A DNA stretch of 64,000 nucleotides, from assembly GCA_964548405.1 (NCBI GenBank), contig CAZJPW010000001.1, positions 4,054 to 68,053 on the forward strand, written 5' to 3'. Within the stretch, counting starts at the first letter, position 1, and the number at the start of each line of letters is the position of its first letter. A model generated the notes under the pieces. It was given only the letters and a program-made list of their open reading frames with translations, was not told the origin of the DNA and ran no database searches. Positions 1,453 through 61,627 of the stretch are shown in pieces. The translations under genes and the position numbers were made by a program. This DNA comes from an uncultured Candidatus Saccharibacteria bacterium (lineage in GTDB: Bacteria > Patescibacteriota > Minisyncoccia > Portnoybacterales > UBA2143).

Positions 1453-1455
1453 GAA

Positions 1456-1668: not shown

Positions 1669-1690
1669 TTAATTTTGTTATGATGAAGAT

Positions 1691-2302: not shown

Positions 2303-4008
2303 AAAATTTAGAGCTTGCTCAAATATTCTATCAAATAGCTGAATATATTGAGATGGATGAGGCATCTTTTCGTTCCCGGGCATATAATAAGGCGGCTCGG
2401 GTTTTAGAATCCTTGGAATTGGATCTTGAAGGCATTTATCTAAAAGATGGTATTAAGGGCTTGAAGAGTCTTCCTGGAATAGGCCAGGCCATTTCTGAGA
2501 AAATAGAGGAATATCTTAAGACCGGCCAGATTAAAACTTTTAATAAGCTCCAAAAGCAATGCCCGGTTGATTTAGAAAAATTAATTAGCGTTGAAGGATT
2601 AGGTGCTAGAAAGATTAAAGTTTTATACAAAGAATTAAATATTAGAAATCTAAAAGATTTAGAAAAGGCAGCTAAGAAAGGTAAGATAGGTAAATTAGAT
2701 GGTTTTGGTGTAAAAAGCGAACAGAATATTCTTCAAGCAATTGAATTTGTCAAAGCCGGTCAAGATAGATTCTTGTTGGGCATGGCCCTACCCATAGTTA
2801 GAGAAATAGTCACTAAGTTGGGAAAACTGTCAGAGGTTAAAAAAATTAGTCCAGCTGGTTCAATTAGGCGTATGAAAGAAACGATTGGCGATCTTGATAT
2901 TTTGGTTGTATCTTCAAAACCAGAGAAAGTGATGGATTTTTTCGTAAATGGACCCAATGTGGTTAAAGTTTGGGCCCAAGGCTTGACTAAATCTTCAGTT
3001 AGGTTGAGAAATAATCTGGATTGTGATTTAAGGATAGTTAAAAGAGAAAGTTTTGGAGCCGCTCTTCAGTATTTTACGGGCAGCAAGGATCATAATATTG
3101 TAGTTCGAAAATTAGCTAAGAAAAAAGGATTGAAATTAAATGAATACGGAGTTTTTAAAGGCAAAAAACAAATAGCCGGTAAAAACGAGAAGGAAGTTTA
3201 TCAAAAAGTTGGACTTTCTTACATTGAACCAGAATTAAGGACTAATACAGGCGAGATTGAAGCTGGTTTGAAAAATAGGTTACCTAAGTTAGTTGAATTA
3301 AAAGACATCAAAGGCGATTGTCATTGTCATAGTAACTGGAGTGATGGAAGTGAAAAGATTGAAGATTTAGCCAAGGCAGCTAAAAAACTTGGATACAAGT
3401 ATATAGCTATTACAGATCATGCTGGATTTTTAAGGATAGCTCATGCCCTAGATGAGAAACAGCTCTTGAAACAAATGGAAGAAATTGATAGGATTAACAG
3501 TCGGCTTTCTGGGATAAAAATCATTAAAGGATCAGAAGTTGATATTGGGGCTGATGGGACGATGGCTATTAAAGATGAGGTTTTGGCCAAGTTAGATTAT
3601 GTTTTAGGTGGAGTTCATTCTAATTTTAAGATGAGTAGGCAAAATATGACTGAGAGATTAATTAGGGCTATGGAGAATTCTCATGTTAATGTAATCGCTC
3701 ATCCGACTGGTCGGGTACTTCAGCACAGGGAAGAGTATCAGTTGGATTTTGATAAGATTTTTAGGATAGCTAAGAAAACAAAAACGGCTTTGGAGATTAA
3801 TGCTAATGCTGGTCGTTTAGATCTGAAGGATGTATATATTCGTCAGGCTAAAGAAGCCGGTGTTAAAATGGTAATCGGTACAGATGCTCATTCTTTAGTA
3901 CATATGACGATGATGGAATTAGGTCTAGCTCAGGCGCGCCGAGGCTGGGCTGAACCAAAAGATATTTTAAATACGAAATCTTTGAGAGATTTTTTAAAAA
4001 GTTTCTAG
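2299..4008 (+). CDS. polX: DNA polymerase family X with C-terminal PHP phosphoesterase domain
   Basis: HhH motifs (GIG, LPGIG), a pol-beta nucleotidyltransferase core (GSIRR...DLDIL), and a PHP domain with CHCHSNWSDG and HP/H motifs. Confidence 0.8.
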   Translation: MKNLELAQIFYQIAEYIEMDEASFRSRAYNKAARVLESLELDLEGIYLKDGIKGLKSLPGIGQAISEKIEEYLKTGQIKTFNKLQKQCPVDLEKLISVEGLGARKIKVLYKELNIRNLKDLEKAAKKGKIGKLDGFGVKSEQNILQAIEFVKAGQDRFLLGMALPIVREIVTKLGKLSEVKKISPAGSIRRMKETIGDLDILVVSSKPEKVMDFFVNGPNVVKVWAQGLTKSSVRLRNNLDCDLRIVKRESFGAALQYFTGSKDHNIVVRKLAKKKGLKLNEYGVFKGKKQIAGKNEKEVYQKVGLSYIEPELRTNTGEIEAGLKNRLPKLVELKDIKGDCHCHSNWSDGSEKIEDLAKAAKKLGYKYIAITDHAGFLRIAHALDEKQLLKQMEEIDRINSRLSGIKIIKGSEVDIGADGTMAIKDEVLAKLDYVLGGVHSNFKMSRQNMTERLIRAMENSHVNVIAHPTGRVLQHREEYQLDFDKIFRIAKKTKTALEINANAGRLDLKDVYIRQAKEAGVKMVIGTDAHSLVHMTMMELGLAQARRGWAEPKDILNTKSLRDFLKSF

Positions 4009-4027
4009 GTGGTTAGATCTTTAATTT

Positions 4028-4055
4028 TTTAGCTTTAACAATTTAGCTTTAACAA
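4028..4055. repeat. Perfect tandem duplication of the 14-mer TTTAGCTTTAACAA immediately upstream of the purF RBS
   Basis: tttagctttaacaa occurs twice back to back, 4028-4041 and 4042-4055. It is followed by the SD AAGGAGGG and the ATG at 4070. Confidence 0.8.
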
Positions 4056-4069
4056 AAGGAGGGTAAGTT

Positions 4070-5383
4070 ATGAGGGACAATTGTGGAGTTTTTGGCATTC
4101 ATTCTTCTAAGGGGTGTGCTGAAAGTATTGAACGCGGCATTTTCCACTTACAGCATCGTGGCCAGGTGTATGCTGGCTTATCCGTTTTTAATGGACAGGA
4201 AATTATTTCCGAGGTAGGGAACGGATTGGTCAAGGAAGTTTTTCCGGCAAGGGATCTGGGAAACTGGGAGGGGAATTCTGGAATAGGGCATGTTAGCTTA
4301 ATGGATCCTCAGCCCCATTTAGTGGATTCCAAGATAGGCAAATTCGTTCTGGCTTTCAGCGGTAATTTGATTAACGGTCCAGAACTGCGGGAGAAATTAA
4401 AGAGCCAAAGAGAATCTTTTTCTACGTCTTATGATGTGGAGGTAATAGCCAGATTAATAGGTAAAGGAAAAGATTATATAAGCGGCATACAAGGAATGTT
4501 TCAAGAATGTAGAGGTGGCTATTCGCTGGTTTTACTAACCGATAACGGAGAAGTTTATGCAGCTAGGGATCCTTATGGGTTTAGACCGTTAATTCTGGCT
4601 AAGAATATTGACGGGTGTGCCGTAGCCTCTGAATCTCCTGCCCTAGAAGAAATAGGCATGGAAGTAGTTAGAGATGTCCGTCCAGGGGAGATTGTCCGAA
4701 TAGAAAAGAATGGTTTTTCCGTGGTTAGAGAATCACAACCGGAAAGAGCAGCCTATTGTGCTTTTGAATGGGCCTATATCGCCCGATTAGATTCTGTGAT
4801 CGAAGGTATTCCGGTCAAAAGAGCCAGGAATAATTTGGGCGGTGAGTTGGCTCAGGGAGATGAAGTGGAGGCGGACATCGTTGCTCCTATTCCTATGTCG
4901 GGCATCGGACACGCCCAGGGATATCATAGGGTGTCTGGCGTTCCTTATGATGATGTCTTTTTGTATAACAGATATTCGGATAGAAGTTATACGCCTCTTG
5001 ACCAGACAGTTAGAGATATCATAGCAAACGAAAAGCTCTCCGTTATCAAGGAATCTATTAAGGGGAAAAAGATCATTATTATCGATGATTCTATCGTCCG
5101 GGGGACCCAGATGAGAAAGCAGGTTTTCAGATTAAAGAAAGCAGGGGCTAATGAAATTCATGTCAGAGTAGCTTCACCTCCCTTAAAAGCTCCCTGCTTA
5201 TACGGGATTTCTACAACTTCCTATGAAGAGCTGGCTGCCGTCAATCATAGTACGGAGGAAATAAGGAAGATGATCGGAGCAGACACATTAAGGTTTAATA
5301 CCTTAGAAGGTTTCATCAGAGCCATCGGTCTGCCATCCGAAAGATTATGTTCATCTTGCTGGACTGGGGAGTATCCAGTTTGA
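4070..5383 (+). CDS. purF: Amidophosphoribosyltransferase (glutamine-PRPP amidotransferase)
   Basis: N-terminal nucleophile CGVFGI directly after the initiator region, PRTase motif IIIDDSIVRGTQ, and a C-terminal CxxC...GEYP cluster. Confidence 0.85.
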   Translation: MRDNCGVFGIHSSKGCAESIERGIFHLQHRGQVYAGLSVFNGQEIISEVGNGLVKEVFPARDLGNWEGNSGIGHVSLMDPQPHLVDSKIGKFVLAFSGNLINGPELREKLKSQRESFSTSYDVEVIARLIGKGKDYISGIQGMFQECRGGYSLVLLTDNGEVYAARDPYGFRPLILAKNIDGCAVASESPALEEIGMEVVRDVRPGEIVRIEKNGFSVVRESQPERAAYCAFEWAYIARLDSVIEGIPVKRARNNLGGELAQGDEVEADIVAPIPMSGIGHAQGYHRVSGVPYDDVFLYNRYSDRSYTPLDQTVRDIIANEKLSVIKESIKGKKIIIIDDSIVRGTQMRKQVFRLKKAGANEIHVRVASPPLKAPCLYGISTTSYEELAAVNHSTEEIRKMIGADTLRFNTLEGFIRAIGLPSERLCSSCWTGEYPV

Positions 5384-5405
5384 CTTATAATCGTTTTTAA
5401 TTGGG

Positions 5406-5435
5406 GGCCTTAGTATGCTAAAATGCACTAAGGCC
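5406..5435. terminator. Perfect 9-bp stem hairpin (GGCCTTAGT / ACTAAGGCC, 12-nt loop) between purF and the next gene; possible terminator or RNA element, with no clear U-tract
   Basis: Inverted repeat read directly from the sequence. Confidence 0.35.
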
Positions 5436-5444
5436 TCTTAAATT

Positions 5445-5816
5445 ATGGATCTTAAAACAAAAAACTGGATATTTGTTTTTGCTTGGGCTGGTTTTATCTT
5501 TTTTCTTTCTCACCAGCCTTTTCTTGAATCTGGTTTGCCTGGCCAGTGGGATTTTGTTTTGCGCAAGCTGGCCCATATTACTGAATACGCTATTTTAACT
5601 TGGCTTTTAATTAGGGCTCTGAAAGAATATCAATTAACAACTAGACAGATCATAATTTCATCTATAACTATAGTTGTGCTTTATGCTGTTTCTGATGAAT
5701 ATCATCAGACTTTTATTCTTGGACGCCAAGGCGCATTCCGTGATGTTTTAATAGATAGCATAGGTATTTTTCTAATAACTTGGTTTAATGGGAAAAAGAT
5801 GATAAAATTAAAATAG
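5445..5816 (+). CDS. VanZ-like membrane protein
   Basis: About 4 TM segments and a DEYHQTFILGRQGAFRDVLIDSIG motif resembling the VanZ family. Confidence 0.55.
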   Translation: MDLKTKNWIFVFAWAGFIFFLSHQPFLESGLPGQWDFVLRKLAHITEYAILTWLLIRALKEYQLTTRQIIISSITIVVLYAVSDEYHQTFILGRQGAFRDVLIDSIGIFLITWFNGKKMIKLK

Positions 5817-5818
5817 TT

Positions 5819-6892
5819 ATGATTGATTTTTCGCAAAAGCCAGCTTTTGGTTTAGATTTAAGCGACCTTTCCTTAAAGATTGTTGAAGTTAATAAAGGGA
5901 AGGGTAGTTTGTTTTTATCTAGTTTTCTTAAACAGGATATTCCTCAAGGTTTGATTGAAGGCGGAGTCATTAAAAAAGAAAAAGAATTAGTTGATATTTT
6001 AAAAAAGGCTTTAGATAAGATAAATGTAGGCAAGCGAGTGGTTTGTAACCTGCCAGAGGAAAAAGTTTTTATTAGAATTATTCAATTACCTAAGATGAAA
6101 GAGAGTGAATTAGAGAAAGCGGTTCATTGGGAAGCCGAAGCTCATATTCCTTTGGGCATTGATGAAGTATATCTTGGCTGGCAGCTTGTTGAACCAATTT
6201 TTGAACATATTGATCATTTGGACGTACTAATTGCAGCCACTCCTAAAACTTTAGTGGATAATTATTTAAGCTTTTTAAGAAAAAGCGGCCTGGAACCAGT
6301 AGCTTTAGAGCCAGAATCAGTTGCTGTAATCAGGAGTCTCATGACTGAGGATGATTTAACTCCTAGTATTATTGTTGATCTGGGAGCAGTAGGAACTAAT
6401 TTTGTCATTTTTTCTGCCCTAGCTATTCGTTTTACTTCGCATATTAATATTTCCGGCCAGCTTTTTAATCAAGCCATTGCCAAGAAATTGAAAGTCACTG
6501 AAAAGGAAGCCAATAAATTAAAGATAGAAGTTGGTCTAGATGAAAAAAAAGAAAATGGTAAAGTTTACAAGGCTTTAGAGCCGATTATTGATAATTTAAC
6601 TAAGCAAATCAAGGATTACGTCACTTTTTATCATGAGCATGCTACTCATGTTCATGGGCCGGACGGGGCTATTGGCCAGGTAATTCTTTGCGGAGGCGAT
6701 TCCTTATTAATCAATTTACCCAAAATATTAAATGAAAAATTAAATATGCCGGTCAAGATGGGTAACCCTTTGATTAATATTTCATCTACTCGCCTCGCTA
6801 CCAAGCGGGTTGATAAGAAAAAAGGCATTACTAAAAAAGAAACTTTTTCATATACCACTGCTTTAGGTTTAGCCTTAAAAAATTTCTTTTAA
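5819..6892 (+). CDS. pilM: Type IV pilus assembly ATPase-like protein PilM
   Basis: Actin-like fold at the N-terminus (FGLDLSDLSLKIVEV), PilM-like length, and pilN/pilO-like genes downstream. Confidence 0.75.
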   Translation: MIDFSQKPAFGLDLSDLSLKIVEVNKGKGSLFLSSFLKQDIPQGLIEGGVIKKEKELVDILKKALDKINVGKRVVCNLPEEKVFIRIIQLPKMKESELEKAVHWEAEAHIPLGIDEVYLGWQLVEPIFEHIDHLDVLIAATPKTLVDNYLSFLRKSGLEPVALEPESVAVIRSLMTEDDLTPSIIVDLGAVGTNFVIFSALAIRFTSHINISGQLFNQAIAKKLKVTEKEANKLKIEVGLDEKKENGKVYKALEPIIDNLTKQIKDYVTFYHEHATHVHGPDGAIGQVILCGGDSLLINLPKILNEKLNMPVKMGNPLINISSTRLATKRVDKKKGITKKETFSYTTALGLALKNFF

Positions 6893-8588: not shown

Positions 8589-9335
8589 ATGCATAAAATC
8601 CAAGGAAAAATTTTAAATCTGTCTAAAAGCCATAATTTGGCTGGTTTGACTTTGCGTAAAATAGGGGAGCTTATAGGCGAGAAAGGAAGTCCTCAGAAAA
8701 TTAAGCATCACCTAAATAAATTGATAGAAAAAGGGTTATTAATAGTAAGTGCTGATGGTGAAAATATTAGTGGTTTATCTGTGGGTCTGGATAAAAAAAA
8801 TAATTTAATCTCTTTGCCTATTTTTGGATCTGCTAATTGTGGTCAGGCTTTAGAATTAGCTGAAAATAATATAGAAGATTATTTGAGAATATCAAAAAAG
8901 ATATTAGGTAATAGTTTAACTAAGAAAATTAAAGATTTATTCGTACTTAAAGCAGTTGGTCAATCTATGGATAGGGCTAATCTTAACGGAGAAAATATTG
9001 AAGACGGTGATTATTTAATTATAGACAAAGAATACAAAGTCCCACAGAATGGAGACTATGTAGTTTCTGTTATTGATGGGGCTGCTAATATTAAGAAATT
9101 TTATTCAGATGATAAAAATGAAAGAGTTGTTTTGGTTTCAGAATCAACTCAAGATATGCCGCCGATTTATGTACATAAAAAAGATTTAGTTGATTATTTA
9201 ATATGTGGTAAAGTCGTTAGTATTGTTAAAAAGATTAATGAATTAGCCTTAATGATAGATGTTTCTGCTAAAGATATTTTAAAGGATTTAGGTCCGATTT
9301 CAGGAAAAGAGGTTAAATATTACGAAAATTTATGA
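8589..9335 (+). CDS. LexA-like transcriptional repressor (wHTH plus S24 self-cleaving peptidase domain)
   Basis: C-terminal GQSM...DGDYLIID...NGDYVVSVIDGAANIKKFY...PPIYV matches the LexA/S24 Ser-Lys dyad region. The N-terminal domain is winged-helix-like. Confidence 0.75.
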   Translation: MHKIQGKILNLSKSHNLAGLTLRKIGELIGEKGSPQKIKHHLNKLIEKGLLIVSADGENISGLSVGLDKKNNLISLPIFGSANCGQALELAENNIEDYLRISKKILGNSLTKKIKDLFVLKAVGQSMDRANLNGENIEDGDYLIIDKEYKVPQNGDYVVSVIDGAANIKKFYSDDKNERVVLVSESTQDMPPIYVHKKDLVDYLICGKVVSIVKKINELALMIDVSAKDILKDLGPISGKEVKYYENL

Positions 9336-9685
9336 ACAATAAGAAAGATATTAAGTTTGGGGAGATATACCTAGTAAATTTTAATCCAAGTGTCGGTCAT
9401 GAATATCAGGGAAAGAGACCAGCGATAGTTATCGAATCTAATAATCAAATTAAGAGAACGAATCTGGTTACCGTTCTGCCATTAACTTCGAATTTGAGCG
9501 GTAAGATGTTAGATGATATATTAGTCAAAGTTAATAAAAGTAACAATCTTTATAACGATTCAATGATTAAAGTATATAGTATTATTTCATTTGATTATTC
9601 TCGTTTCATAAAAAGGATCGGTATTGTAGATAAACAAATAATGGTCAGGATTAAAAATTATTTAAAGAAGCATTTTGATCTATAA
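9332..9685 (+). CDS. MazF/PemK/Kid-family endoribonuclease toxin
   Basis: GEIYLVNFNPSVGHEYQGKRPAIVI...VTVLPLTSN closely parallels the MazF/PemK signature. Its start overlaps the lexA-like stop codon (ATGA). Confidence 0.75.
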   Translation: MNNKKDIKFGEIYLVNFNPSVGHEYQGKRPAIVIESNNQIKRTNLVTVLPLTSNLSGKMLDDILVKVNKSNNLYNDSMIKVYSIISFDYSRFIKRIGIVDKQIMVRIKNYLKKHFDL

Positions 9686-9790: not shown

Positions 9791-10498
9791 ATGAAGGAAA
9801 CAAAAAAATTACATTCTATTCAAATGGATATTCTGCGGGTTTTAATGTTTCGTCCTGAAGCCCGTTTTGCTGACTTGAATGTTCCGGAGATTTCCAATGA
9901 TCATTTTACTTTTCATGTTAAGAGATTACTTAAGCTTGGTTTAGTAGAAAAGAATGAGAAAGGAAAGTATCAATTAACTGATGCGGGTAAAGAATTTGCT
10001 AATCGTTTTGATACTGATAGTCAAGAAATAGTTTTAGAGAAACAGGCAAAGATTGGAGTTGCTATATGTTGTATTAAAAAAATAAAGGGAATCAAGAAAT
10101 ATTTAATTCAGCAGCGTTTAAAACAGCCATATTATGGATTTTATGGATTTATGACTGGTAAGGTTAGGTGGGGTGAAACAGTTGAAGAAACTGCCAAAAG
10201 GGAATTAAAGGAAGAGACTGGATTAATGGCCCAATTATCATTAGCAGGAATCAAACATAAGATGGATTATAGTAATAAAAAGAAATTATTGGAGGACAAA
10301 TATTTTTTTATCTTTAGGGGTGATAATCCCAAGGGTAAATTAATAGAATCATTTGAAGGCGGTAAGAATTTTTGGCTAACAGAGCAAGAAATTAAAAAAC
10401 TGCCTGATCTGTTTGATGGAGTAGATGAGGTAGTTAAGATGATTGGCCGTAATAAATTAGTATTTAAGGAGATAAAATATATTGTTTCTGGGTATTAA
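9791..10498 (+). CDS. Nudix hydrolase with an N-terminal winged-helix domain
   Basis: Nudix box GKVRWGETVEETAKRELKEETGL (GX5EX7REUXEEXGU). The N-terminal roughly 90 aa are wHTH-like. Confidence 0.7.
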   Translation: MKETKKLHSIQMDILRVLMFRPEARFADLNVPEISNDHFTFHVKRLLKLGLVEKNEKGKYQLTDAGKEFANRFDTDSQEIVLEKQAKIGVAICCIKKIKGIKKYLIQQRLKQPYYGFYGFMTGKVRWGETVEETAKRELKEETGLMAQLSLAGIKHKMDYSNKKKLLEDKYFFIFRGDNPKGKLIESFEGGKNFWLTEQEIKKLPDLFDGVDEVVKMIGRNKLVFKEIKYIVSGY

Positions 10499-11847
10499 TA
10501 ATAACTATTTGGATTGACGTGCCAGATTTGTTCTACGGCTTTGGTAATGTTAGGGTTGTCAAAATAGGCTGAAAGCTGTTGAGTCCAATTAGAAGCAGAA
10601 GTAGAAATAACAGGTTCAACACCATTGCCTTCAATGGGTTGATTGTCATCTCTAAGAGTTAAAGTATGAACCAAAAAGATAGAATGCTTTTCTGTTTCTG
10701 AAATTCTGTTTTCTAATTGAAAAACTCTTTCTATCGTACCCCAGCCTCGAGTGGTTTGGCCTACAACTACGCCAACATTATATCTTTTCAAAGCAGCGAC
10801 CATTAATTCAGCTGTTGATTGGCTTTGGTTGTTAATTAAGATAATTACTTTTTTATAGGGAACCAAGCTATTGAGCCAGCCCACTTTGGTTTTAAAGGGA
10901 GTTCGTTCTCCTTGATGAAGAAATTCGTAAGCATATTGGTCATAGCCGATAAAAGGACCTATAAAATAGGGTAAGATATCAATGGAGCCTCCAATATTAT
11001 TTCTTAAATCCAGAACTAAAGTATCCAGATTTTGATCAACAACCCTATTAGTCTCAGTTTGGAATTCATCAAAAGTTACAGGAGAGAATACTTTTAAATG
11101 AATATGAAAAATATTTGGTTCAATTATTTTAGTATAAATAGTTGGTTCTGCTCCGGTCTGGTCGTATCTTTGTTTTTTAGCTTCGTCTGATAAAACTTGG
11201 TGGGCTGATTCAACTTTTTTTAATTCTTGTTTAGCTTCTTCTTTTTCGGGTTCTGGAGTGCTGGGGGCTTCAATCTTTTCTTCTAATTGAACTGTTTTTT
11301 CTTGGTAAACTTCTTCAACTTTTTCTGGAGTGGCGTTTTTAGCTACGCCTAAATCCTGGTAAAGATCTTTATCTGGATTAATATTCTGAACTCTGTTTTT
11401 TAAAGCTTGTTCATCCTGGGTTGTATAAAGGCCGCTGCGGCCCATTGGTTGGAGGTTTTGCAAGACAATCGTAGCTAATTTAGTTGTAAATTCTTGTTTT
11501 TGTTCATCATTTAAATCGGTTAATGTTTTTTCTATCATTGTTTCCAATCCTTGTTTGTCATTTGGTTCAATAGGATGAGAACCACCAATTAGTTTTTCTG
11601 TGCCTAATTGAAAAAGATTGTTTAATTCTGCTTGAGATAAAGTGTCCCAATAATTTTCTTGGATTTTATCATAGATTTCTAAAAGAAAAGCAGTGTATAT
11701 GTTTTTTTCTTCGTTTTCGGTTATTGGCTGAGTTATTATATTTTTCAAAGAATAAAAGTATCCACCCGCAGCGCCAATAACCAAAATTACTATTATAGCT
11801 ATGAGGCCAGCTGAATAAAGTAGATATTTTTTGTACTTCTTTTTCAT
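10495..11847 (-). CDS. S41-family (C-terminal processing/tail-specific) peptidase with an N-terminal TM and an internal degenerate J-domain-like segment
   Basis: S41 catalytic region NQSQSTAELMVAALK...GQTTRGWG. The segment DLYQDLGVAKNATPEKVEEVY...AHQVLSDEAKKQRYDQTG parallels a DnaJ J-domain but the HPD tripeptide is replaced. Confidence 0.65.
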   Translation of the reverse strand: MKKKYKKYLLYSAGLIAIIVILVIGAAGGYFYSLKNIITQPITENEEKNIYTAFLLEIYDKIQENYWDTLSQAELNNLFQLGTEKLIGGSHPIEPNDKQGLETMIEKTLTDLNDEQKQEFTTKLATIVLQNLQPMGRSGLYTTQDEQALKNRVQNINPDKDLYQDLGVAKNATPEKVEEVYQEKTVQLEEKIEAPSTPEPEKEEAKQELKKVESAHQVLSDEAKKQRYDQTGAEPTIYTKIIEPNIFHIHLKVFSPVTFDEFQTETNRVVDQNLDTLVLDLRNNIGGSIDILPYFIGPFIGYDQYAYEFLHQGERTPFKTKVGWLNSLVPYKKVIILINNQSQSTAELMVAALKRYNVGVVVGQTTRGWGTIERVFQLENRISETEKHSIFLVHTLTLRDDNQPIEGNGVEPVISTSASNWTQQLSAYFDNPNITKAVEQIWHVNPNSYY

Positions 11848-43645: not shown

Positions 43646-48773
<5,128 letters not shown>

Positions 48774-50088: not shown

Positions 50089-50640
50089 TTAATTCAGTAG
50101 GCCCTTAAGATGAGCTCTACAGAATGCGGCGATTGTCGCTGTATCTGTAATTTGGTCGTCACTGATGAGAGCCGAGAGATAATTAGTGGAATATTGATGA
50201 ATTTCAAACATGTTTTCATCCAGAGGATCTGTTCTAGGATTAGGGATTTTTTTCACGTTTTTAGCCAAATAAATTCTTCCTTTGGCTTTAACACTAACTC
50301 CAATTTCTTTAATGAAGCCCAAGTCGGTCCATTCGTCTGACTTCAGATGAATTTCTTCTTCTAATTCTCGCTTAGCGGCCTCAAGTGGGGTTTCGTTCAG
50401 ATCGACTACGCCACCAGGAAATTCGATGGTGAATTTTCCGATTGGGTAGCGATGGCTTCCTACCGTCCAGATTTTTCCATCTGAATCAATAGGGATAATC
50501 ATAACAAAGGGGCGTCTCATCTTAATCCATGTATAGAGGCGTTTTTCACCTCCGGGTGACAGTACTGTGTCCTCTATTACTTGGAAGAATGGAAAATCAT
50601 GAATTTTCTTTGTTTCAACTTTCGTCCAAGGCTTTATCAT
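50089..50640 (-). CDS. Nudix hydrolase (ADP-ribose pyrophosphatase-like)
   Basis: Nudix box GGVVDLNETPLEAAKRELEEEIHL. Confidence 0.75.
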   Translation of the reverse strand: MIKPWTKVETKKIHDFPFFQVIEDTVLSPGGEKRLYTWIKMRRPFVMIIPIDSDGKIWTVGSHRYPIGKFTIEFPGGVVDLNETPLEAAKRELEEEIHLKSDEWTDLGFIKEIGVSVKAKGRIYLAKNVKKIPNPRTDPLDENMFEIHQYSTNYLSALISDDQITDTATIAAFCRAHLKGLLN

Positions 50641-50772
50641 TTTGGTCCTCCTTCTGGTTTGGGGTTAAAGAGCTTCAGATAATTAATGAAATACTAACCT
50701 CTATTTACAAATTTGTCAAAAAACTTTACTTTTATAACGTTTTGTTATAGAATAACTAAAATATCTAAAAAT

Positions 50773-51303
50773 ATGAGGAAGATTGCTAATCAAAAGAAGA
50801 TTATTGACTATAAAGAATTAAGTAAAATAGTCGAAGCCTATAGAATTTTAGGGAAAAGAGTTGTCTGTACTATAGGTTCTTGGGATATGTTGCATATTGG
50901 TCATTTACGCTATTTAAATAGAGCTAAGAGTTTAGGTGACGTTTTAATAGTCGGAGTTGATAGCGATAGGGCAATTAGGATTTACAAAAATAGTTCAATA
51001 AGACCGATAATTCCAGAAAATGAAAGGATGGAAATGTTAGGCTATCAGGAGTTTATAGACTATGTTACTTTAGTGGATGATGTTGATGATAAAGGTAATT
51101 GGAAATTAGGACTTGTTAAGAAGGTTAATCCTGATATTTTTGTTGCGGTGGCAGACGAGAGCTATTCAGATCAACAAAAGAAAGATATAGCTAAGCTTTG
51201 CGGTAAATTACATATTTTACCCCGGCAGGCTAGAAAGACTTCAAACACTAATATAGTGGAGGAAGTTTTCAAGAAGAAGATAGAACATCTTTTAAATAAA
51301 TGA
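50773..51303 (+). CDS. Cytidylyl/adenylyltransferase-family protein (HIGH-type nucleotidyltransferase, RfaE domain II/TagD-like). The track ORF starts at 50713
   Basis: GSWDMLHIGHLRYL (HxGH) and LIVGVDSD. Confidence 0.65.
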   Translation: MRKIANQKKIIDYKELSKIVEAYRILGKRVVCTIGSWDMLHIGHLRYLNRAKSLGDVLIVGVDSDRAIRIYKNSSIRPIIPENERMEMLGYQEFIDYVTLVDDVDDKGNWKLGLVKKVNPDIFVAVADESYSDQQKKDIAKLCGKLHILPRQARKTSNTNIVEEVFKKKIEHLLNK

Positions 51304-51743
51304 CGAAAAAGGTAGTCAATTTAAAATATGCTAAAACAAAAGACTATGGCAATGTTTTAAAGACTATAGATGGTATAAATAAGTGTCCCTTTTGTAAAGA
51401 AAATTTTAAATATCATAGGAAACCAGTAATTAGAAAAGAAAAAAGTTGGTTTTTAACAGAAAATACCTGGCCTTATAAGAATTCTCAATATCATTTCATA
51501 ATTATTTCAGAAAAGCACAAAGAAGAATTTAATCAATTAACTCAAACCGATTTTAGGACTGTTTCTAAATTGGTAAACTGGGCCATCAAAAAATATAGAA
51601 TTAAGGGTGGTGGATTAACAATGAGATTTGGCAATTCTAATTATACTGGGGCTACAGTTCATCATATTCATTTTCATCTAATTGTTCCAAAATTTAATAA
51701 GAAAAAGAAAGAGGTAGATCCAGTATATTTTCCCATTGGTTAA
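51300..51743 (+). CDS. HIT-family (histidine triad) nucleotide hydrolase/transferase
   Basis: C-terminal triad VHHIHFHLIV. Confidence 0.7.
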   Translation: MTKKVVNLKYAKTKDYGNVLKTIDGINKCPFCKENFKYHRKPVIRKEKSWFLTENTWPYKNSQYHFIIISEKHKEEFNQLTQTDFRTVSKLVNWAIKKYRIKGGGLTMRFGNSNYTGATVHHIHFHLIVPKFNKKKKEVDPVYFPIG

Positions 51744-52626
51744 AATGAAAAATCTAGATAATAAAAATATTTTAGTCATTGCTGAGTTACCAGTTATTCA
51801 CAAAGGATATCTAGAGGCTTTTTTAAAAATAAAGAAAGATAATCCCAAAACCCATTTCTATATGGGTTTTTTAGGTAATAGAATCATTAAAGAATTAACT
51901 AAGTTGGAATCTGATATTAGGAAAATTTCTTTTGAGGATTCTAAAAAAATATTAGACTGTTATTTACCAATTAAGAAATGTTTTTTGGTAACTAGAGATA
52001 GTTTTTCCAAGATTAATAAAAGTGTAAAATTTAACAAAATTATAGTTTTTCGAGGAGAAAAAAGTGAACAATTCGCTAAGAAAATATTAAAAGAGAATAA
52101 ATATAAAAAGTTGACTAAGTTTTATGATATAAGGTTGAGGTGGGAGGATGATAAAGTGGCTGAATTCAGAAAAAATAAGAGTAAAATTTTAAAACCAGAA
52201 TTGGAAATTCATAAAAAGTTTATCAAAAAAGCTTTTAGAGAGATAGAAAAATCTAAATGTTGGTGGCGTCAAGTAGGAGCAATTTTAGTTAAAAACAAAA
52301 AAGTTATTTTTACCGCTTTTAATGAAATGATGCCAACTGATGACGAGTGCTATAAGATTGGATGTATTAGAGATCATATCAAGCCTGGAGAAAAGTCAGA
52401 AGTGTGTAGTGTTTCTCATGCTGAGGCATCTATTGTAGCTAGAGCGGCTAACCAAGGCATTTCTTTGAAAAGAACTACTCTTTACGTAACTCATTTTCCT
52501 TGTCCGGCTTGCGCTAAGTTAATCGCCTTATCAGGTATAAAAACAGTTGTTTATACCCGGGGTTCATCTGTTTTTGATGGGGCCCGAGTGATGAAAGATA
52601 ACGGTATTAAATTGATAAAAATTTAA
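51736..52626 (+). CDS. dCMP/cytidine deaminase domain protein with an N-terminal domain of unknown function (about 150 aa)
   Basis: C-terminal CDA zinc motifs HAEASI...PCPACAK. The N-terminal half has no recognisable motif. Confidence 0.7.
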   Translation: MVKMKNLDNKNILVIAELPVIHKGYLEAFLKIKKDNPKTHFYMGFLGNRIIKELTKLESDIRKISFEDSKKILDCYLPIKKCFLVTRDSFSKINKSVKFNKIIVFRGEKSEQFAKKILKENKYKKLTKFYDIRLRWEDDKVAEFRKNKSKILKPELEIHKKFIKKAFREIEKSKCWWRQVGAILVKNKKVIFTAFNEMMPTDDECYKIGCIRDHIKPGEKSEVCSVSHAEASIVARAANQGISLKRTTLYVTHFPCPACAKLIALSGIKTVVYTRGSSVFDGARVMKDNGIKLIKI

Positions 52627-52631
52627 ATAAT

Positions 52632-54089
52632 ATGAGTAGAAAGAATTGGCCAATCTATTTTAAAGACAATTTAGTTTTAGGAAATCCCAAAAGCGAAATT
52701 GGTATAGTTACTCTTTGGACGCCAACTAAAAAAATTACCGATAAGATTGATAAGAATCTTTTTTGTGTTGCTGGTCAACTTTATTCCAAAGAAGGAATAA
52801 ACTATATCATTCGAAATATCCTAGCTAATCCTTTAATTAGATATTTATTAATTTGTGGTAACGATCTTTCTGGAAGTGGTCAGGCTTTAATTGATTTCTT
52901 TAAAAAAGGTATTGATCAAGATCATAATATTGTAAATATTCCTTATGCTCCCATTGATAAGGAGATTCCTTTAAGAAGTGTGAATATTTTCAGAAAAGGG
53001 GTAAAAATCAATAATTCTATTGGTCTTAGTGATTGTCAGGAAATAACTAAGAAAATTAGGAGATATAGGTCGATTGGTCAAGCATTTGCTAAAGCTAGAG
53101 TTTTTGATTTAACCAAAACAGAAGAGGAAAACTATCTTCCAAGCGACCAATCAGTTTTTAAAATTACTAATCAGCATATTGGTCAGGTTTGGTTGGATAT
53201 TTTAAAAATAATTTGGCGTTTTGGCAGAATTAGAGAGTCTTTTTATGGAAATCCAGTTAGAGAAGTTTTTAATATCGCTGCTGTAATTACCAAAGAAGAT
53301 TCTTTTAAGCCTAAGATTTATCCATATTTTTCTATTACTAAGAAAGAAATTGAGAAATATTGCCAGGCTATCATGACTGATAAAAAGGGTAATGAAATAT
53401 ATACTTACGGAGAACGGTTATGGGGGTATAAGGGTATTAATCAAATAAAAGAAGTAATAATTCCTTTTTTAAAGCAGTATCCGACTGACCGGGCAGCTGT
53501 AGCGGTGACCTTTGATTTAGCTAATGATCATAAAGCGGAAAGGTCTCCTTGTATGTGTTTGGTTCAGGCTACCAATTTGGATAACAAACTTAATTTTACA
53601 GCATACTTTAGAAGTCATGATATATTTTCTGGCTGGATTCTTAATGCTTTTGGACTAAGGCGCGTTCAGGATTATGTTGCCAAGAAGTTAAAGTTAGAAA
53701 TGGGTACTTTGACGATTTTTTCTAACTGTGCCCATGTTTATGATAATCAATGGAAATCAATTAAAGCTATCGTTAAGAAGTATAAAGATATGCCAAATTG
53801 TGCCTTGGATCCTCGAGGCTATTTTATAATCAATATTAAAAATAAGGAAATAATAGCTAAATTATACTCTCCAGAGGGTTTGTTTTTAGAGGAATTTCGT
53901 CAAGATGGAACTAGAAGTAAATCAGCAATGGTTTTGTATCAAAAGTTAGTTAATTCTAATGCAGTATCTCTTGTTGCTCATGCTTTTGATCTAGGAGCAG
54001 AGTTGCAAAAAGCTGAGACGGCTATTAAGTTAAATATTCCTTATCAACAAGATAAGCCTTTGAAATTTTCCAAAACTGATATAAGATAA
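52632..54089 (+). CDS. Fusion protein: N-terminal MtrA-like domain, thymidylate synthase (ThyA)-like domain, and a C-terminal extension
   Basis: Residues about 20-100: IGIVTLW...ANPLIRYLLICGNDLSGSGQALIDFF resembles MtrA (VAVCTLGS...NPNIRFLILCG.EV.GH..GQ). Residues about 170-390: ThyA motifs YGERLWGY, SPCMCLVQ (catalytic Cys), YFRSHDIFSGWILNAFGL (the substrate-specificity Asn is kept), SNCAHVYDNQ. Confidence 0.65.
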   Translation: MSRKNWPIYFKDNLVLGNPKSEIGIVTLWTPTKKITDKIDKNLFCVAGQLYSKEGINYIIRNILANPLIRYLLICGNDLSGSGQALIDFFKKGIDQDHNIVNIPYAPIDKEIPLRSVNIFRKGVKINNSIGLSDCQEITKKIRRYRSIGQAFAKARVFDLTKTEEENYLPSDQSVFKITNQHIGQVWLDILKIIWRFGRIRESFYGNPVREVFNIAAVITKEDSFKPKIYPYFSITKKEIEKYCQAIMTDKKGNEIYTYGERLWGYKGINQIKEVIIPFLKQYPTDRAAVAVTFDLANDHKAERSPCMCLVQATNLDNKLNFTAYFRSHDIFSGWILNAFGLRRVQDYVAKKLKLEMGTLTIFSNCAHVYDNQWKSIKAIVKKYKDMPNCALDPRGYFIINIKNKEIIAKLYSPEGLFLEEFRQDGTRSKSAMVLYQKLVNSNAVSLVAHAFDLGAELQKAETAIKLNIPYQQDKPLKFSKTDIR

Positions 54090-54093
54090 ATAT

Positions 54094-55368
54094 ATGAATA
54101 AGGATAAAAATTGGAAGCTATTAGAGAAAAATGATAAGCAGATATTTAAGGCGATTGTCGGTGAAGAAAAGCGCCAGGCCAAAGGAATTGAATTAATTCC
54201 TTCTGAAAACTATACCTATCCAGAAGTTTTAGCAGCTAATGGCTCTATTTTAACCAATAAGTATTCTGAAGGCTATCCTAAGAAAAGATATTACGGGGGC
54301 CAGGAATACACAGATATTGTCGAACAATTGGCTATTGATCGAGCTAAAAAGGTTTTTAAATGTGAGCATGCTAATGTTCAGCCTTTGTCCGGTTCTCCTA
54401 TGAACCAGGCAGTTTATTTAGCTTTTCTTAAACCGGGTGATACTGTTTTAGGCATGGATTTGTCGCATGGAGGCCACCTTACTCATGGAGCGCCTGTTTC
54501 CCATATGGGCAAGATTTTTAATTTTATCAGGTACAAGACAGATCCGGAAAATAAAGGTAAGATTGATTTTAAAGAATTGATGCGATTGACTAAAAAGCAT
54601 AAGCCTAAGATTGTTCTTTGCGGATATACTTCTTATCCAAGAGAAAATAATTATGCTGATTTCAAGAAAGTAGCTCGAGCAGTAGGAGCTATAACTATGG
54701 CTGATGTGGCCCATATCGGCGGATTAATTGCCGGTGGGGTTTTAAAAAATCCTTTTGATTATGGATTTGATATTGTTACCACTACAGTCCATAAAAGCTT
54801 AAGAGGACCTAGGGCTGGTTTAATTCTTTGCAAGAAAGAGTATGCTGATCAAATTGATAAGTCAGTTTTTCCAGGTTTACAGGGTGGACCACATATGCAA
54901 ACTATTGCCGCTATTGCCATAACCCTTAAAAAAGCCATGGAGCCAGAATTTAAAAGATATGCCAAGCAGATATTAAAGAATGCAAAAGTGTTATCAGAAA
55001 CATTAATGGATAGCGAAGCTAAAGTTAAATTAATAACCAATGGCACAGATAATCATATGATGGTTATGGATACAGTTAAGAGTTTTAATATCAATGGTAA
55101 GATAGCCGAAGAAACATTAGATAAAATCTCTATTACAGTTAACAAACAAATAATCCCTGATGATATTAATCCACCCTTAAAGCCAAGTGGCATTCGTTTG
55201 GGTACGCCGGCAGCCACTACTAGAGGTATGAAAGAAAAGGAGATTAAGAAGATTGGTTTATGGATGATTGATGCTTTGAATAATTATCAGGATGATAAAT
55301 ATTTGAAGAAATTAAAAAAAGACGTAGAAACTATGTGTTTAAAATTTAAAGTTCCAGGAGTAGTATAA
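54094..55368 (+). CDS. glyA: Serine hydroxymethyltransferase
   Basis: The PLP-binding region around TTTVHKSLRGPR and overall SHMT-like sequence. Confidence 0.95.
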   Translation: MNKDKNWKLLEKNDKQIFKAIVGEEKRQAKGIELIPSENYTYPEVLAANGSILTNKYSEGYPKKRYYGGQEYTDIVEQLAIDRAKKVFKCEHANVQPLSGSPMNQAVYLAFLKPGDTVLGMDLSHGGHLTHGAPVSHMGKIFNFIRYKTDPENKGKIDFKELMRLTKKHKPKIVLCGYTSYPRENNYADFKKVARAVGAITMADVAHIGGLIAGGVLKNPFDYGFDIVTTTVHKSLRGPRAGLILCKKEYADQIDKSVFPGLQGGPHMQTIAAIAITLKKAMEPEFKRYAKQILKNAKVLSETLMDSEAKVKLITNGTDNHMMVMDTVKSFNINGKIAEETLDKISITVNKQIIPDDINPPLKPSGIRLGTPAATTRGMKEKEIKKIGLWMIDALNNYQDDKYLKKLKKDVETMCLKFKVPGVV

Positions 55369-56141
55369 TGAACATTATTGATGGTAAAAAAATAGCAGAT
55401 AAGATTATTAGTGATTTAGAAAGAGAAGTGAAAGACAGAAGTATTAAACCGTGTTTGGGTGTAGTTTTGGTGGGTAATGACACAGCTTCTCATATATATA
55501 TTAAGAAAAAAGAGCAGGCCGCTGAAAAAATCGGCATTAAAGTCAAAAAACATGTTTTATCTGAAGATGTTTCAGAAAAAGAAGTATTAGAAATTGTTAA
55601 TAATTTGAATTCAGATAATGAAGTTAACGGCATTTTAGTTCAGATGCCTCTGCCTAGTTATATTTTTCCTGACAAAGTCACAGGAGCAATTAGTCTAGAA
55701 AAGGACGTCGATGGCTTTTTACCGAAGAGCGGGTTTAGTCCACCTTTTGTTTTGGCTATTGAGCGAGCCCTTGAAGAAACAGGCGATTTAAAAGACAAGA
55801 AAGTAATTGCCCTAGTTAATTCAGACGCCTTTGGTAAAGTCTTAGAATCAAGACTTAATATTAAGTATCGGGTCTGGGTTGTTAATTCTTTAGATGATTT
55901 AACTGAATTTGATGTAATAATCACTGCTTTGGGTCAACCACATATTATTAAAGATTCAATGATTAAACAAAATGTTGTTTTAATAGATGGTGGAATAAGT
56001 AGGAAAGATGGTAAAATATTAGGCGACGTTGATCAAAAAAGTGTTAAAAATAAGGCTAACTGGCTTTCACCGGTACCAGGAGGTTTAGGCCCCATGACCG
56101 TAGCCTTCTTATTAAAAAACGTAGTCTTAGGTGTGAAATAA
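55368..56141 (+). CDS. folD: Bifunctional methylene-THF dehydrogenase/methenyl-THF cyclohydrolase (short form)
   Basis: FolD N-terminal IIDGKKIA, and a YxxK-like region followed by a PGGVGP motif (PVPGGLGPMT). Confidence 0.85.
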   Translation: MNIIDGKKIADKIISDLEREVKDRSIKPCLGVVLVGNDTASHIYIKKKEQAAEKIGIKVKKHVLSEDVSEKEVLEIVNNLNSDNEVNGILVQMPLPSYIFPDKVTGAISLEKDVDGFLPKSGFSPPFVLAIERALEETGDLKDKKVIALVNSDAFGKVLESRLNIKYRVWVVNSLDDLTEFDVIITALGQPHIIKDSMIKQNVVLIDGGISRKDGKILGDVDQKSVKNKANWLSPVPGGLGPMTVAFLLKNVVLGVK

Positions 56142-59883: not shown

Positions 59884-60624
59884 ATGGAAAAAGTTTTTCT
59901 ATCAGTTATTATTCCAGGATATAATGAAAGCAAGCGTATCACTAATACGCTTTTGGATATTGATCATTATTTAAGTAAGCAAGAATATACCTATGAAATC
60001 GTGGTGGTTAACGATGGTTCTAAGGATAATACAGTCCAAGTTGTTGAAAAAGTTGGAAATTTAGTAAAGAATCTTAGAATAATTGATAATCAAGTTAACC
60101 ATGGCAAAGGTTGGGTAGTCCGACAAGGTATGCTTGAATCTTTGGGCCAGATTAGGCTTTTTATGGATGCTGATAACGCTACGACCATTAATCATTTTGA
60201 AAAGATGATTCCTTTGTTTGAGCAGGGCCATTCAGTGGTTATTGGTTCGCGTGATAGTAAAGATGCGGCTGGAGCCAGACAGGCTGTGTCTCAGGTTTGG
60301 TATAAGAGAATAGTGGGAAATATGGGGAATCTTTTAATTCAGTTATTGGCTGTACCTGGTATTTGGGATACTCAATGCGGTTTTAAAGCGTTTAAGGCCA
60401 AGGTAGCTCAGGATATTTTTAGCCGCTGTCAGATTGACCGTTGGGGGTTTGATATTGAAGTATTGGCCGTAGCTAAAAAGCTTGATTACAAGATAGGGAT
60501 TATTCCGGTTAATTGGATAAACGATCCTGATAGCAGAGTTAACTGGAAAGGCTATTTGAACACTTTTAGAGAATTGTTTAAAGTAAGATGGAATTTAATT
60601 ATTGGAAAATATGATAAAAAATAG
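59884..60624 (+). CDS. Family 2 glycosyltransferase (dolichyl/polyprenyl-phosphate sugar synthase-like)
   Basis: N-terminal VIIPGYNE and the DxD-type DAD motif. Confidence 0.75.
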   Translation: MEKVFLSVIIPGYNESKRITNTLLDIDHYLSKQEYTYEIVVVNDGSKDNTVQVVEKVGNLVKNLRIIDNQVNHGKGWVVRQGMLESLGQIRLFMDADNATTINHFEKMIPLFEQGHSVVIGSRDSKDAAGARQAVSQVWYKRIVGNMGNLLIQLLAVPGIWDTQCGFKAFKAKVAQDIFSRCQIDRWGFDIEVLAVAKKLDYKIGIIPVNWINDPDSRVNWKGYLNTFRELFKVRWNLIIGKYDKK

Positions 60625-61627
60625 AAAAGGGATTCTAAGGAATCCTCCCTCAGAGTTAAGAATGGACTTAGTTTCCAGCGATTGGGTAGTTATTGCTACT
60701 GGTCGGGCTCGCCGGCCCGAAACCTTTGCTAAGCATCAACGGATCAAGGATTCTGTTTCGTCGGACAAGTGTTTTTTTTGTCAGCCTAAGATTCTGGAAA
60801 GGTCAGTTGATAAAGTTAACGGCCAAGACGGTTCTTGGTTTGTCGTATCTTATCCCAATGATTATCCAGCTTTTGCTCCGGGTCAGGATCTTAACAGGCG
60901 CAAAGAGGGGCCTAATCGGGTGATGGACGGAGTGGGTCATCATGAAGTTATTATTACAGCCGATCATCAAAAGCAAATAGCTCTATTTAATACGGCTCAA
61001 GTGAAAATGATAATTGATCTTTATCAAAAGAGATATTTGGAATTAATGAAAAAGAAATTCATTAAGTATATTTCAATTTTTCACAATCATGGCAAGGAAG
61101 CAGGTGCCTCTATATCTCATCCTCATTCTCAATTATTGGCTATTCCAGTAATTGATCCAGATTTAAGAGCCAGCATTGATGGAGCAGAGAACTTTTACAG
61201 AAGCCAGGGTAAATGTGTCTATTGCACCATGATTGAGTGGGAGCTTAAGGATAAGAGGCGTATTGTTTACGAAAATGACAAATTTTTGGTAGTTTGTCCC
61301 TTTGCTGCCCAAGTTTCTTTTGAAGTTAGGGTTTATCCTAAAGATCACCAATCCCATTTTGAAAGTATGACTGAATCAGAAAAAGAATTGTTTGCCGATG
61401 CCATGCAGATTGCTTTGAATAGGATTTACAAGGGTCTTAAGGATCCGGCTTATAATTTCTATTTCCACACCGCCCCTTGCGATGGAGGAAACTATGATCA
61501 ATATCATTGGCATTTGAATATTCTGCCTAAAACCAATGTTTGGGCAGGTTTTGAATTGGGAGCAGGTATAGAAATTAGCACTATTGAGCCGGAAAAGGCG
61601 GCTGAATTTCTAAATAAAACAAAATGA
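60602..61627 (+). CDS. galT: Galactose-1-phosphate uridylyltransferase
   Basis: The active-site HPHSQL (His-Pro-His) and a Cys/His zinc site. Confidence 0.8.
   Translation: MENMIKNRKGILRNPPSELRMDLVSSDWVVIATGRARRPETFAKHQRIKDSVSSDKCFFCQPKILERSVDKVNGQDGSWFVVSYPNDYPAFAPGQDLNRRKEGPNRVMDGVGHHEVIITADHQKQIALFNTAQVKMIIDLYQKRYLELMKKKFIKYISIFHNHGKEAGASISHPHSQLLAIPVIDPDLRASIDGAENFYRSQGKCVYCTMIEWELKDKRRIVYENDKFLVVCPFAAQVSFEVRVYPKDHQSHFESMTESEKELFADAMQIALNRIYKGLKDPAYNFYFHTAPCDGGNYDQYHWHLNILPKTNVWAGFELGAGIEISTIEPEKAAEFLNKTK

Follow-up and report, generated by a model that had tools for sequence, protein, structure and literature searches.

Thymidylate synthesis is essential and a classic drug target, and to our knowledge only two classes of thymidylate synthase (TS) exist: ThyA, which needs dihydrofolate reductase (DHFR), and the flavin-dependent ThyX. 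The small TS enzymes of archaea, modeled as TIGR03283 (thy_syn_methano), are stand-alone proteins of ~200 aa, and we know of no report in which they showed folate- or methanopterin-dependent activity in vitro. Studies such as those of Krone et al. 1994 and Xu et al. 1999 are said never to have settled the one-carbon donor of the archaeal enzymes. The locus described here lies in a 64,000-nucleotide stretch of DNA (referred to as the window; G+C ~32-40%) from contig CAZJPW010000001.1 of an uncultured Candidatus Saccharibacteria bacterium, a member of the Patescibacteria, or candidate phyla radiation (CPR). At its center is a 485-aa protein in which a small TS core stands between an MtrA-like domain and a DUF4346 domain. 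We think it rather probable that this is the dTMP synthesis locus of the genome, and that the two flanking domains form a module that would supply cofactor handling to a minimal TS.

The gene and the three domains of its product are as follows.
52632..54089 (+): three-domain thymidylate synthase of 485 aa, with MtrA, Thymidylat_synt, and PF14251 matches
52638..53072 (+): MtrA-like Rossmann-type domain, aa 3-147, PF04208 60.9 bits
53157..53783 (+): small archaeal-type TS core, aa 176-384, without the classical C-terminal segment
53805..54053 (+): PF14251 (PterinBD-DUF4346), aa 392-474, with a beta3-alpha2 fold, 61.2 bits

Domain calls were scored against Pfam gathering scores and NCBIfam cut-offs. 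The Thymidylat_synt match (PF00303, aa 254-414) reached 64.9 bits against a gathering score of 24.3, and the PF14251 match exceeded its gathering score of 29.6. An AF2 model of the whole protein had a pLDDT of 90.2 and a pTM of 0.83. The closest TS model was TIGR03283, which aligned with aa 178-376 over profile positions 3-200 of 201; the window protein shares the minimal core length of the archaeal enzymes, but it is fused, and its score of 156.9 bits falls below the equivalog cut-off of 174.55. Alignment of the window TS with E. coli ThyA by hhalign gave a probability of 97%, and the proteins of solved structure closest to it in sequence belong to the true thymidylate synthases, with T4 td at E 2e-16.

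The first-pass annotation had recognized an active-site Cys (PCMC) and a dUMP-specifying Asn (ILNAF), and these do align with Cys146 and Asn177 of E. coli ThyA. Across 259 family sequences, which were not de-duplicated, the equivalents of C146 (window C307; 251/259), R166 (R327; 252/259), S167 (S328; 247/259), N177 (N338; 250/259), H207 (H368; 230/259), Y209 (Y370; 239/259), Y94 (Y259; 252/259), and R126 (R287; 231/259) are kept. The differences from ThyA (EC 2.1.1.45, PF00303; E. coli, L. casei, phage T4 td) concern size and the folate site. The window core is only ~210 aa long and is embedded between two extra domains, the equivalent of R127 is Ala in the fusion family, and that of D169 is variable. 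The core ends ~12 residues past the H-x-Y motif and is followed by DUF4346, whereas E. coli ThyA runs on for ~50 residues, so that the window protein is without the C-terminal stretch that, in the classical enzyme, shuts the folate site with its free carboxylate. The usual neighbors of the fusion gene (dCMP deaminase, dUTPase, and thymidylate kinase [Tmk]; see below) also identify it as the TS of these organisms. At the level of sequence, the evidence establishes the 485-aa protein as the predicted thymidylate synthase of its host, with a minimal archaeal-type core that retains all of the dUMP-binding and catalytic residues.

In favor of an assembly error or a frameshift that joined separate genes in the window, split versions of the same components occur in other genomes. 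This explanation is almost certainly wrong. The open reading frame (ORF) is uninterrupted, and more than 100 orthologs of ~480 aa have the domains in the same order. Joining of the adjacent split genes (MtrA-DUF, then TS) could not give the order MtrA-TS-DUF, which also counts against an artifact. We rejected it as a candidate because ENA, JGI, and Logan assemblies, independent of one another, encode the identical 485-aa protein on 10 contigs.

The fusion recurs widely. A word-indexed search with it returned 308 clusters (at 90% identity); nearly all of the best 120 of these are ~480 aa long and share the three Pfam domains. Their sources are Patescibacteria and some DPANN archaea, and public databases, where they name them at all, call them “thymidylate synthase” or “hypothetical.” When one genome per species was scanned, relatives were found in 121 genomes, which belong to Patescibacteria of many classes, Woese-, Pace-, and Micrarchaeota, Chloroflexota, and one Planctomycetota. 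Domain hidden Markov models (HMMs) recovered the complete MtrA-TS-DUF architecture in 73 of 80 related loci; four more carry an insertion in the TS, and the rest are cut by contig ends. In the Dojkabacteria-type fusions (L044-L048, L052, L059, L071), an insertion of ~30-50 aa in the TS splits the HMM match in two. One Woesearchaeota contig (L027) encodes a fusion (9989-11437, +) and, ~4 kb away, a stand-alone small TS of 215 aa (5389-6033, -).

The first-pass annotation knew of no described fusion of this kind, and a full-text literature search likewise found nothing describing an MtrA-TS fusion, a TS-MtrA/DUF4346 gene pair, or the function of PF14251; the protein is, however, no one-off but a member of a large family publicly annotated as “thymidylate synthase.” What is new is a TS with an unprecedented, conserved partner derived from a corrinoid protein; the TS and MtrA labels and the three Pfam domains were already known.

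At the 80 related loci, the neighborhoods examined extend 5-10 kb to either side of the fusion. A dCMP deaminase is encoded nearby in 54/80, a group of nucleotidyltransferase (NT), HIT, and NUDIX genes in 39/80, Tmk in 28-35/80, dUTPase in 17/80, and DeoC in 5/80. At the DPANN loci, Tmk is present in 8/14 and the deaminase in 5/14; the Chloroflexota neighborhoods (TrpS, TrpB-like, ParB-like, PilZ) contain no thymidylate genes. Synteny alone is weak evidence for function here, because NusG, L11, L1, GatB, and MiaB are likewise conserved neighbors in the CPR. Nevertheless, the reading of the window cluster as a route from dCMP through dUMP to dTMP, with one-carbon units supplied by serine hydroxymethyltransferase (SHMT, GlyA) and FolD, is upheld by the domains, the catalytic residues, and the neighbors taken together.

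The first-pass annotation had also raised the possibility that the protein acts as a dUMP hydroxymethylase or hypermodifies bases in some other way. We consider this most improbable. No glycosyl-, kinase-, or amino-transfer hypermodification genes recur nearby, and the context is plain dTTP synthesis: the protein is apparently the sole TS candidate in a housekeeping dCMP-deaminase/dUTPase/Tmk setting in hundreds of small genomes. The close sequence relationship to true thymidylate synthases, noted above, points the same way.

MtrA is the corrinoid (cobalamin)-binding subunit of the methyl-H4MPT:CoM methyltransferase (Mtr) complex of methanogens, and it has cytoplasmic homologs (PF04208; PDB 5laa, 5l8x). 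The paper on its structure (Wagner et al. 2016, PMC4915002) points to unexplained homologs in bacteria and in archaea that are not methanogens. The N-terminal domain of the fusion matches PF04208 both by profile and by fold; its relationship to MtrA, proposed in the first-pass annotation, is therefore borne out, but it spans ~145 aa rather than ~100. Similarly, the “C-terminal extension” noted there is present but is a recognized Pfam domain, PF14251, which had been missed. True MtrA differs in several respects. The window domain scores 59.8 bits against TIGR01111 (cut-off 249.15), continues into the TS instead of a membrane anchor, and stands in a window with no mtr genes and in a host that is no methanogen.

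We mapped the cobalamin contacts of MtrA, taken from Wagner et al. 2016 (PMC4915002), onto the domain. The cobalt ligand His84 corresponds to window Ser82 (Ser or Thr in 243/259, never His) and its relay partner Glu54 to Lys53; both His84 and Glu54 are lost in 259/259 fused proteins. The pocket for the nucleotide loop is kept, with Ser52, Gly55, Ile59, and Asn62 in place of MtrA Thr53, Gly57, Val61, and Asn64, and a new near-invariant residue, Arg61, lies beside it. Many polar residues of the module are 93-99% conserved across bacteria and archaea, at overall identities of 35-87%.

DUF4346 is not confined to this architecture. A DUF4346-only profile retrieved 1,366 clusters among 1.84 billion representatives. 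These include MtrA-like plus DUF4346 alone (P0142, 273 aa), a His84-type MtrA plus DUF4346 (P0224), an MtrA-like domain with a degenerate TS remnant and DUF4346 (P0205 type, without the PC or RS..N motifs), and archaeal TIGR00284 proteins, annotated as dihydropteroate synthase (DHPS)-like, with DUF4346 at the C terminus (P0244, 258 bits, cut-off 256.65). P0142 (L085:872-1693), whose MtrA-like domain is of the His-less type, lacks a TS domain and is encoded directly upstream of thymidylate kinase. In the archaeal proteins P0205, P0210, and P0157 (L089:224-1408 and neighbors), the TS remnant between the MtrA-like domain and DUF4346 has no catalytic Cys, Arg, or Asn; P0205 adjoins Tmk and a dCMP deaminase bearing an N-terminal P-loop kinase-like domain.

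The stand-alone MtrA plus DUF4346 proteins of CPR and DPANN genomes are evidently the unfused counterpart of the module. A search with the His84-type module gave 232 clusters of 260-370 aa from Aenigmarchaeota, Nanoarchaeota, and Patescibacteria, which match NF002128 and are annotated as “tetrahydromethanopterin S-methyltransferase subunit A” or “DUF4346 domain-containing protein.” In contrast to the fused form, their two domains are contiguous, and the equivalents of T53, E54, N55, G57, N64, G83, and H84 are invariant in 31 aligned sequences. A TS gene (257-266 aa) follows the module directly on the same strand in four of four genomes (L092 and L094 from Patescibacteria, L095 and L096 from archaea), and dCTP deaminase, Tmk, or DeoC lies near all four pairs. 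Among the 22 closest loci in a metagenome scan, a TS was found downstream of the module in all 18 that were informative (at least 500 bp of downstream sequence). In three of the remaining four, the sequence stops within 31 bp after the module gene. The fourth (L117:142-1797, +) carries a single ORF of ~540 aa in which a His84-type MtrA, DUF4346, and the TS follow one another, a second and independent fusion order.

The chromosomal setting is shared as well. In L092 the gene order is PheST-GyrB-SecE-NusG-L11-[Dcd-module-CYTH-TS-Tmk-DeoC]-GatB-MiaA-MiaB, and in the window it is PheST-GyrB-SecE-NusG-L11-[NUDIX-NT-HIT-deaminase-fusion-GlyA-FolD]-GatB-MiaA-MiaB, so that the split pair and the fusion occupy the same slot. 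Two fusion topologies, strict adjacency, and this common slot indicate that the module works with this TS lineage, and together they establish it as a predicted dedicated and conserved partner rather than a chance fusion. A more distant MtrA plus DUF4346 family of ~390 aa (58 loci, L119-L176) has no TS neighbor, which suggests that the module is a general corrinoid-type unit recruited to different partners. The neighbors of that family include ArsR-type regulators (23 loci), Cys-rich small membrane proteins, CcdA-like and thioredoxin-like proteins, a P-type ATPase, and a CDF transporter, and it may be a corrinoid protein acting in a metal or metalloid context.

The split-form TS itself departs from the classical pattern. 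It keeps C146, Y94, R126, N177, and D169, but R166 and S167, otherwise essential, are replaced by Lys and Thr in 22/22 sequences, H207 is variable, and there is usually an insert of the form RCYPDC...GKC with three or four Cys (e.g., L092:8434-9207), which may be a metal site; the TS of the second fusion order is also of this K/T type. These features mark the split-form TS as a non-classical subfamily, and they bear on an alternative that we regard as unlikely, namely that the module binds a corrinoid-type cofactor delivering methyl groups or reducing equivalents, so that no dihydrofolate would be made and no DHFR would be needed. The split form would bind the cobamide His-on, the fused form His-off, and either CH3-Co(III) would transfer a methyl group to Cys-activated dUMP or two reducing equivalents would reach the exocyclic-methylene intermediate. 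Besides the departures of the split-form TS, the complete set of cobalamin contacts in split modules that always stand beside a TS, the retained nucleotide-loop pocket of the fused form, the variable D169 equivalent, and the lack of FolA at any of the 80 loci are consistent with such a mechanism. The Ser or Thr at the His84 position resembles His-off corrinoid proteins such as the corrinoid iron-sulfur protein CFeSP.

The fused proteins fit this alternative less well. All have lost His84 and Glu54, their TS has the canonical Arg and Ser, and in the window it stands beside GlyA and FolD, which make methylene-tetrahydrofolate (CH2-THF), not methyl-tetrahydrofolate (CH3-THF). Neither the window nor the neighborhoods contain MetF, a methyl-THF:corrinoid methyltransferase, a cobamide transporter, or a reductive activase, and a corrinoid-dependent TS is without precedent. 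The broader proposition, that the small CPR/DPANN TS and its obligatory MtrA/DUF4346 partner form a third mechanistic class that uses a corrinoid-type cofactor and produces no dihydrofolate for a DHFR to reduce, also seems to us improbable.

Loss of the cobalt ligand could instead mean that the module is the leftover of a corrinoid protein, retained as a regulatory or structural appendage (for nucleotide sensing or oligomerization) of a TS that works alone. The kept pocket, which in MtrA binds the dimethylbenzimidazole (DMB)-ribose-phosphate, and the adjacent Arg61 could serve such a role, and module-free small TS genes do exist, such as that for the 215-aa protein in L027. However, the high conservation of polar module residues, the two independent fusion orders, and the strict adjacency of the split genes argue for a direct role in catalysis, and we find the appendage explanation distinctly unlikely.

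The reading that we prefer is that the module supplies a cofactor-handling function. The dCMP deaminase would produce dUMP, the 485-aa fusion would convert dUMP to dTMP, and SHMT and FolD, encoded next door, would provide and interconvert CH2-THF. The TS core is inserted between the two halves of the MtrA-like plus DUF4346 module, and the module, in which polar residues reach the same conservation as the catalytic ones, would supply what the minimal core lost with the ~50-residue segment that closes the folate site. That the fused form follows the classical CH2-THF chemistry and its module binds the cofactor, either as a lid or to retain it, appears to us a little short of an even prospect; the adjacent GlyA and FolD and the canonical Arg and Ser of the fused TS favor it.

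Several observations weigh against this reading. The idea of a lid derives from sequence topology alone. In a comparison of the DUF4346 fold with known pterin-binding folds none matched, and we found no traceable evidence behind the “PterinBD” label in Pfam. The equivalent of D169, a pterin contact in classical ThyA, is Asp in 167/259 sequences (64%), Ala in 61 (24%), and Ser in 19 (7%), and because of this variability classical folate binding fits poorly. Adjacency of the fusion to GlyA and FolD is the exception (3-4/80 loci), Tmk mostly occupying their place; the three genes adjoin one another only in the window and in L001 (its closest relative), L037, and L041. Finally, the link of the NT and HIT genes to dTMP synthesis may be positional only.

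The first-pass annotation also suggested a pterin-handling variant in an organism short of folate enzymes. When E. coli FolA, L. casei FolA, and T. maritima ThyX were used as phmmer queries, neither the window nor the 80 loci gave a match, the search being confined to these neighborhoods. Nor did the remaining window ORFs of 110 aa or more, the ribosomal-protein operon at ~18-29 kb excepted, show DHFR or ThyX in a Pfam scan. According to a survey, folA occurs in just 54.8% of CPR genomes (glyA 81.3%, folD 79.7%; PMC11974145). The module might be a DHFR analog that reduces the dihydrofolate released by TS with NAD(P)H or flavin, in the manner of the protozoan DHFR-TS. Like the protozoan and plant DHFR-TS, the window protein combines an N-terminal alpha/beta domain and a TS behind it in a single chain of ~500 aa, and its top Foldseek matches are DHFR-TS chains. 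The loop S80-G81-S82-G83 at a helix N terminus could bind phosphate, and DUF4346 is also found on TIGR00284 proteins, whose DHPS-like annotation implies release of 7,8-dihydropterin. The reported activity of the TIGR00284-type protein MJ0301 would likewise release a 7,8-dihydropterin.

In contrast to DHFR-TS, the N-domain of the window protein has the MtrA fold, Pfam and NCBIfam searches gave no PF00186 match, only the TS part superposes (TM 0.33), and there is an extra C-terminal domain. The catalytic domain of TIGR00284 is a pterin-binding TIM barrel, not a TS, and no MtrA-like domain was detected in it. We consider a DHFR analog very unlikely: the sister module is clearly of the cobalamin type, and modules with a degenerate TS remnant persist, which is hard to square with a sole job in dihydrofolate recycling.

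CPR and DPANN organisms are ultra-small symbionts unable to make folate or cobamides, and a large share of these radiations relies on such a minimal TS core. At the least, the MtrA/DUF4346 module is a new and widespread accessory to TS, tied to it by adjacency or by two different fusions, and the label “tetrahydromethanopterin S-methyltransferase subunit A,” misleading in non-methanogens, can be corrected. At the most, the system would represent a new cofactor logic for thymine synthesis and a vitamin dependency that shapes these symbioses. If the corrinoid class were true, it would give a function to the unexplained MtrA homologs of non-methanogens and might explain why the archaeal small TS is not known to have shown activity with folate or methanopterin in vitro. 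There is a realistic chance that the chemistry of the module-TS system is new.

The fusion gene is part of a block of six ORFs at 50713-56141 (+), of 196, 147, 296, 485, 424, and 257 aa (50713-51303, 51300-51743, 51736-52626, 52632-54089, 54094-55368, and 55368-56141). The other genes of the block, and the genes on either side of it, are as follows.
50089..50640 (-): divergent NUDIX hydrolase, Pfam NUDIX 49.7 bits
50773..51303 (+): cytidylyltransferase-like nucleotidyltransferase with a HIGH motif, PF01467 58.2 bits
51300..51743 (+): HIT-family protein, HINT-like, PF01230 28.4 bits and PF11969 (DcpS_C) 31.9 bits
51745..52626 (+): dCMP deaminase with a degenerate NT-like N-domain, PF00383 71.4 bits over aa 157-273
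54094..55368 (+): serine hydroxymethyltransferase GlyA, PF00464 485 bits, NF000586 535 bits against a cut-off of 335
55368..56141 (+): short FolD, methylene-THF dehydrogenase/cyclohydrolase of 257 aa, PF00763 120 bits and PF02882 96 bits
56143..57600 (+): GatB, a gene call with GatB_N/GatB_Yqey, 1 nt after FolD

All domain assignments for the six ORFs lie above the Pfam gathering scores, and profile searches confirmed the MtrA, ThyA, CDA, and HIT assignments of the first-pass annotation. Its description of six packed, mostly overlapping genes holds for the tight packing on the + strand; true overlaps occur in only two gene pairs (4 nt and 1 nt), and the remaining gaps are 1-5 nt. FolD scores 192 bits, below all NCBIfam equivalog cut-offs (at least 333). 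The maximal ORF of the first gene begins at TTG 50713, whereas independent gene calls use ATG 50773 (176 aa), which is probably the start; promoter and terminator scans, otherwise uninformative in this AT-rich DNA, gave a promoter-like site upstream of ATG 50773. For the deaminase, the independent calls start at ATG 51745 (293 aa). GatB extends the same tight co-directional block and is downstream in 24/80 loci; it is probably a synteny-conserved neighbor that is functionally unrelated to the block.

The first gene contains the motif MLHIGH and clearly exceeds the PF01467 gathering score of 21. Its closest NCBIfam model is RfaE domain II (95 bits, under the cut-off), and its PDB relatives are HldC, ECT, CCT, and TagD. 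The HIT protein has the motifs CPFC and HHIHFHL (PF01230 gathering score 21.5), its PDB HIT matches are weak, and in 32-39/80 loci a HIT gene adjoins or is fused with NT genes. The deaminase domain (52204-52554; PF00383 gathering score 25) carries HAE (SHAEAS) and PCPAC (FPCPAC) motifs and misses the ComEB equivalog cut-off (62 against 219).

The ~150-aa N-domain of the deaminase, listed as unexplained in the first-pass annotation, is real but can be identified. The region at ~51748-52068 aligned with an NT profile at an hhalign probability of 91% (E 1e-6, 103 columns), whereas three unrelated control profiles gave <1%. Its HxGH motif has degenerated to PVIHKGY in the window, and GxFxVxH(K/R)GY is conserved in 23 loci; by these profile comparisons, the N-domain is a degenerate HIGH-type nucleotidyltransferase. 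Three loci (L037 [4207-6441], L047, and L058) encode proteins of 726-745 aa that combine an APH/choline-kinase-like domain, two intact cytidylyltransferase domains, and HIT, immediately upstream of a plain dCMP deaminase (~160 aa) and the TS fusion. Both the order NT-HIT-deaminase and the order NT-deaminase-HIT occur, with NUDIX genes interspersed, and in L005, L006, and others NUDIX paralogs stand between HIT and the deaminase or the fusion. We speculate that NT, HIT, NUDIX, and the NT-like deaminase domain, which are all part of one conserved block, handle (deoxy)cytidine nucleotides upstream of the deaminase; that NT and HIT yield (d)CMP from CDP-linked or triphosphate forms is a guess.

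The NUDIX gene at 50089-50640 (-) is arranged head-to-head with the NT gene, and promoter-like hexamers are present on both strands of the 130-nt spacer. A second NUDIX hydrolase is encoded at 9791-10498 (+). At 59884-61627 (+), a second HIT-superfamily gene near the cluster, for a GalT-like enzyme (GalP_UDP_transf/DUF4921), comes after that for a GT2 glycosyltransferase. GyrB of the window (45516-48773, +; 1085 aa) bears an intein (CFSDDTEV...VHNS), with an Intein_splicing match in the gene call of the same contig; the syntenic GyrB of L094 also has an intein, and that of L092 has none. Genes for an ATCase/OTCase-like protein, a truncated MFS protein, PolX (pol-beta thumb and PHP), and a PurF-like amidophosphoribosyltransferase lie together at 346-5383 (+), isolated pieces of nucleotide biosynthesis in a type of genome that usually has no de novo pathways. 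At 8589-9685 (+), a gene for an S24/LexA-like peptidase overlaps that for a MazF/PemK toxin in an unusual toxin-antitoxin-like pair.

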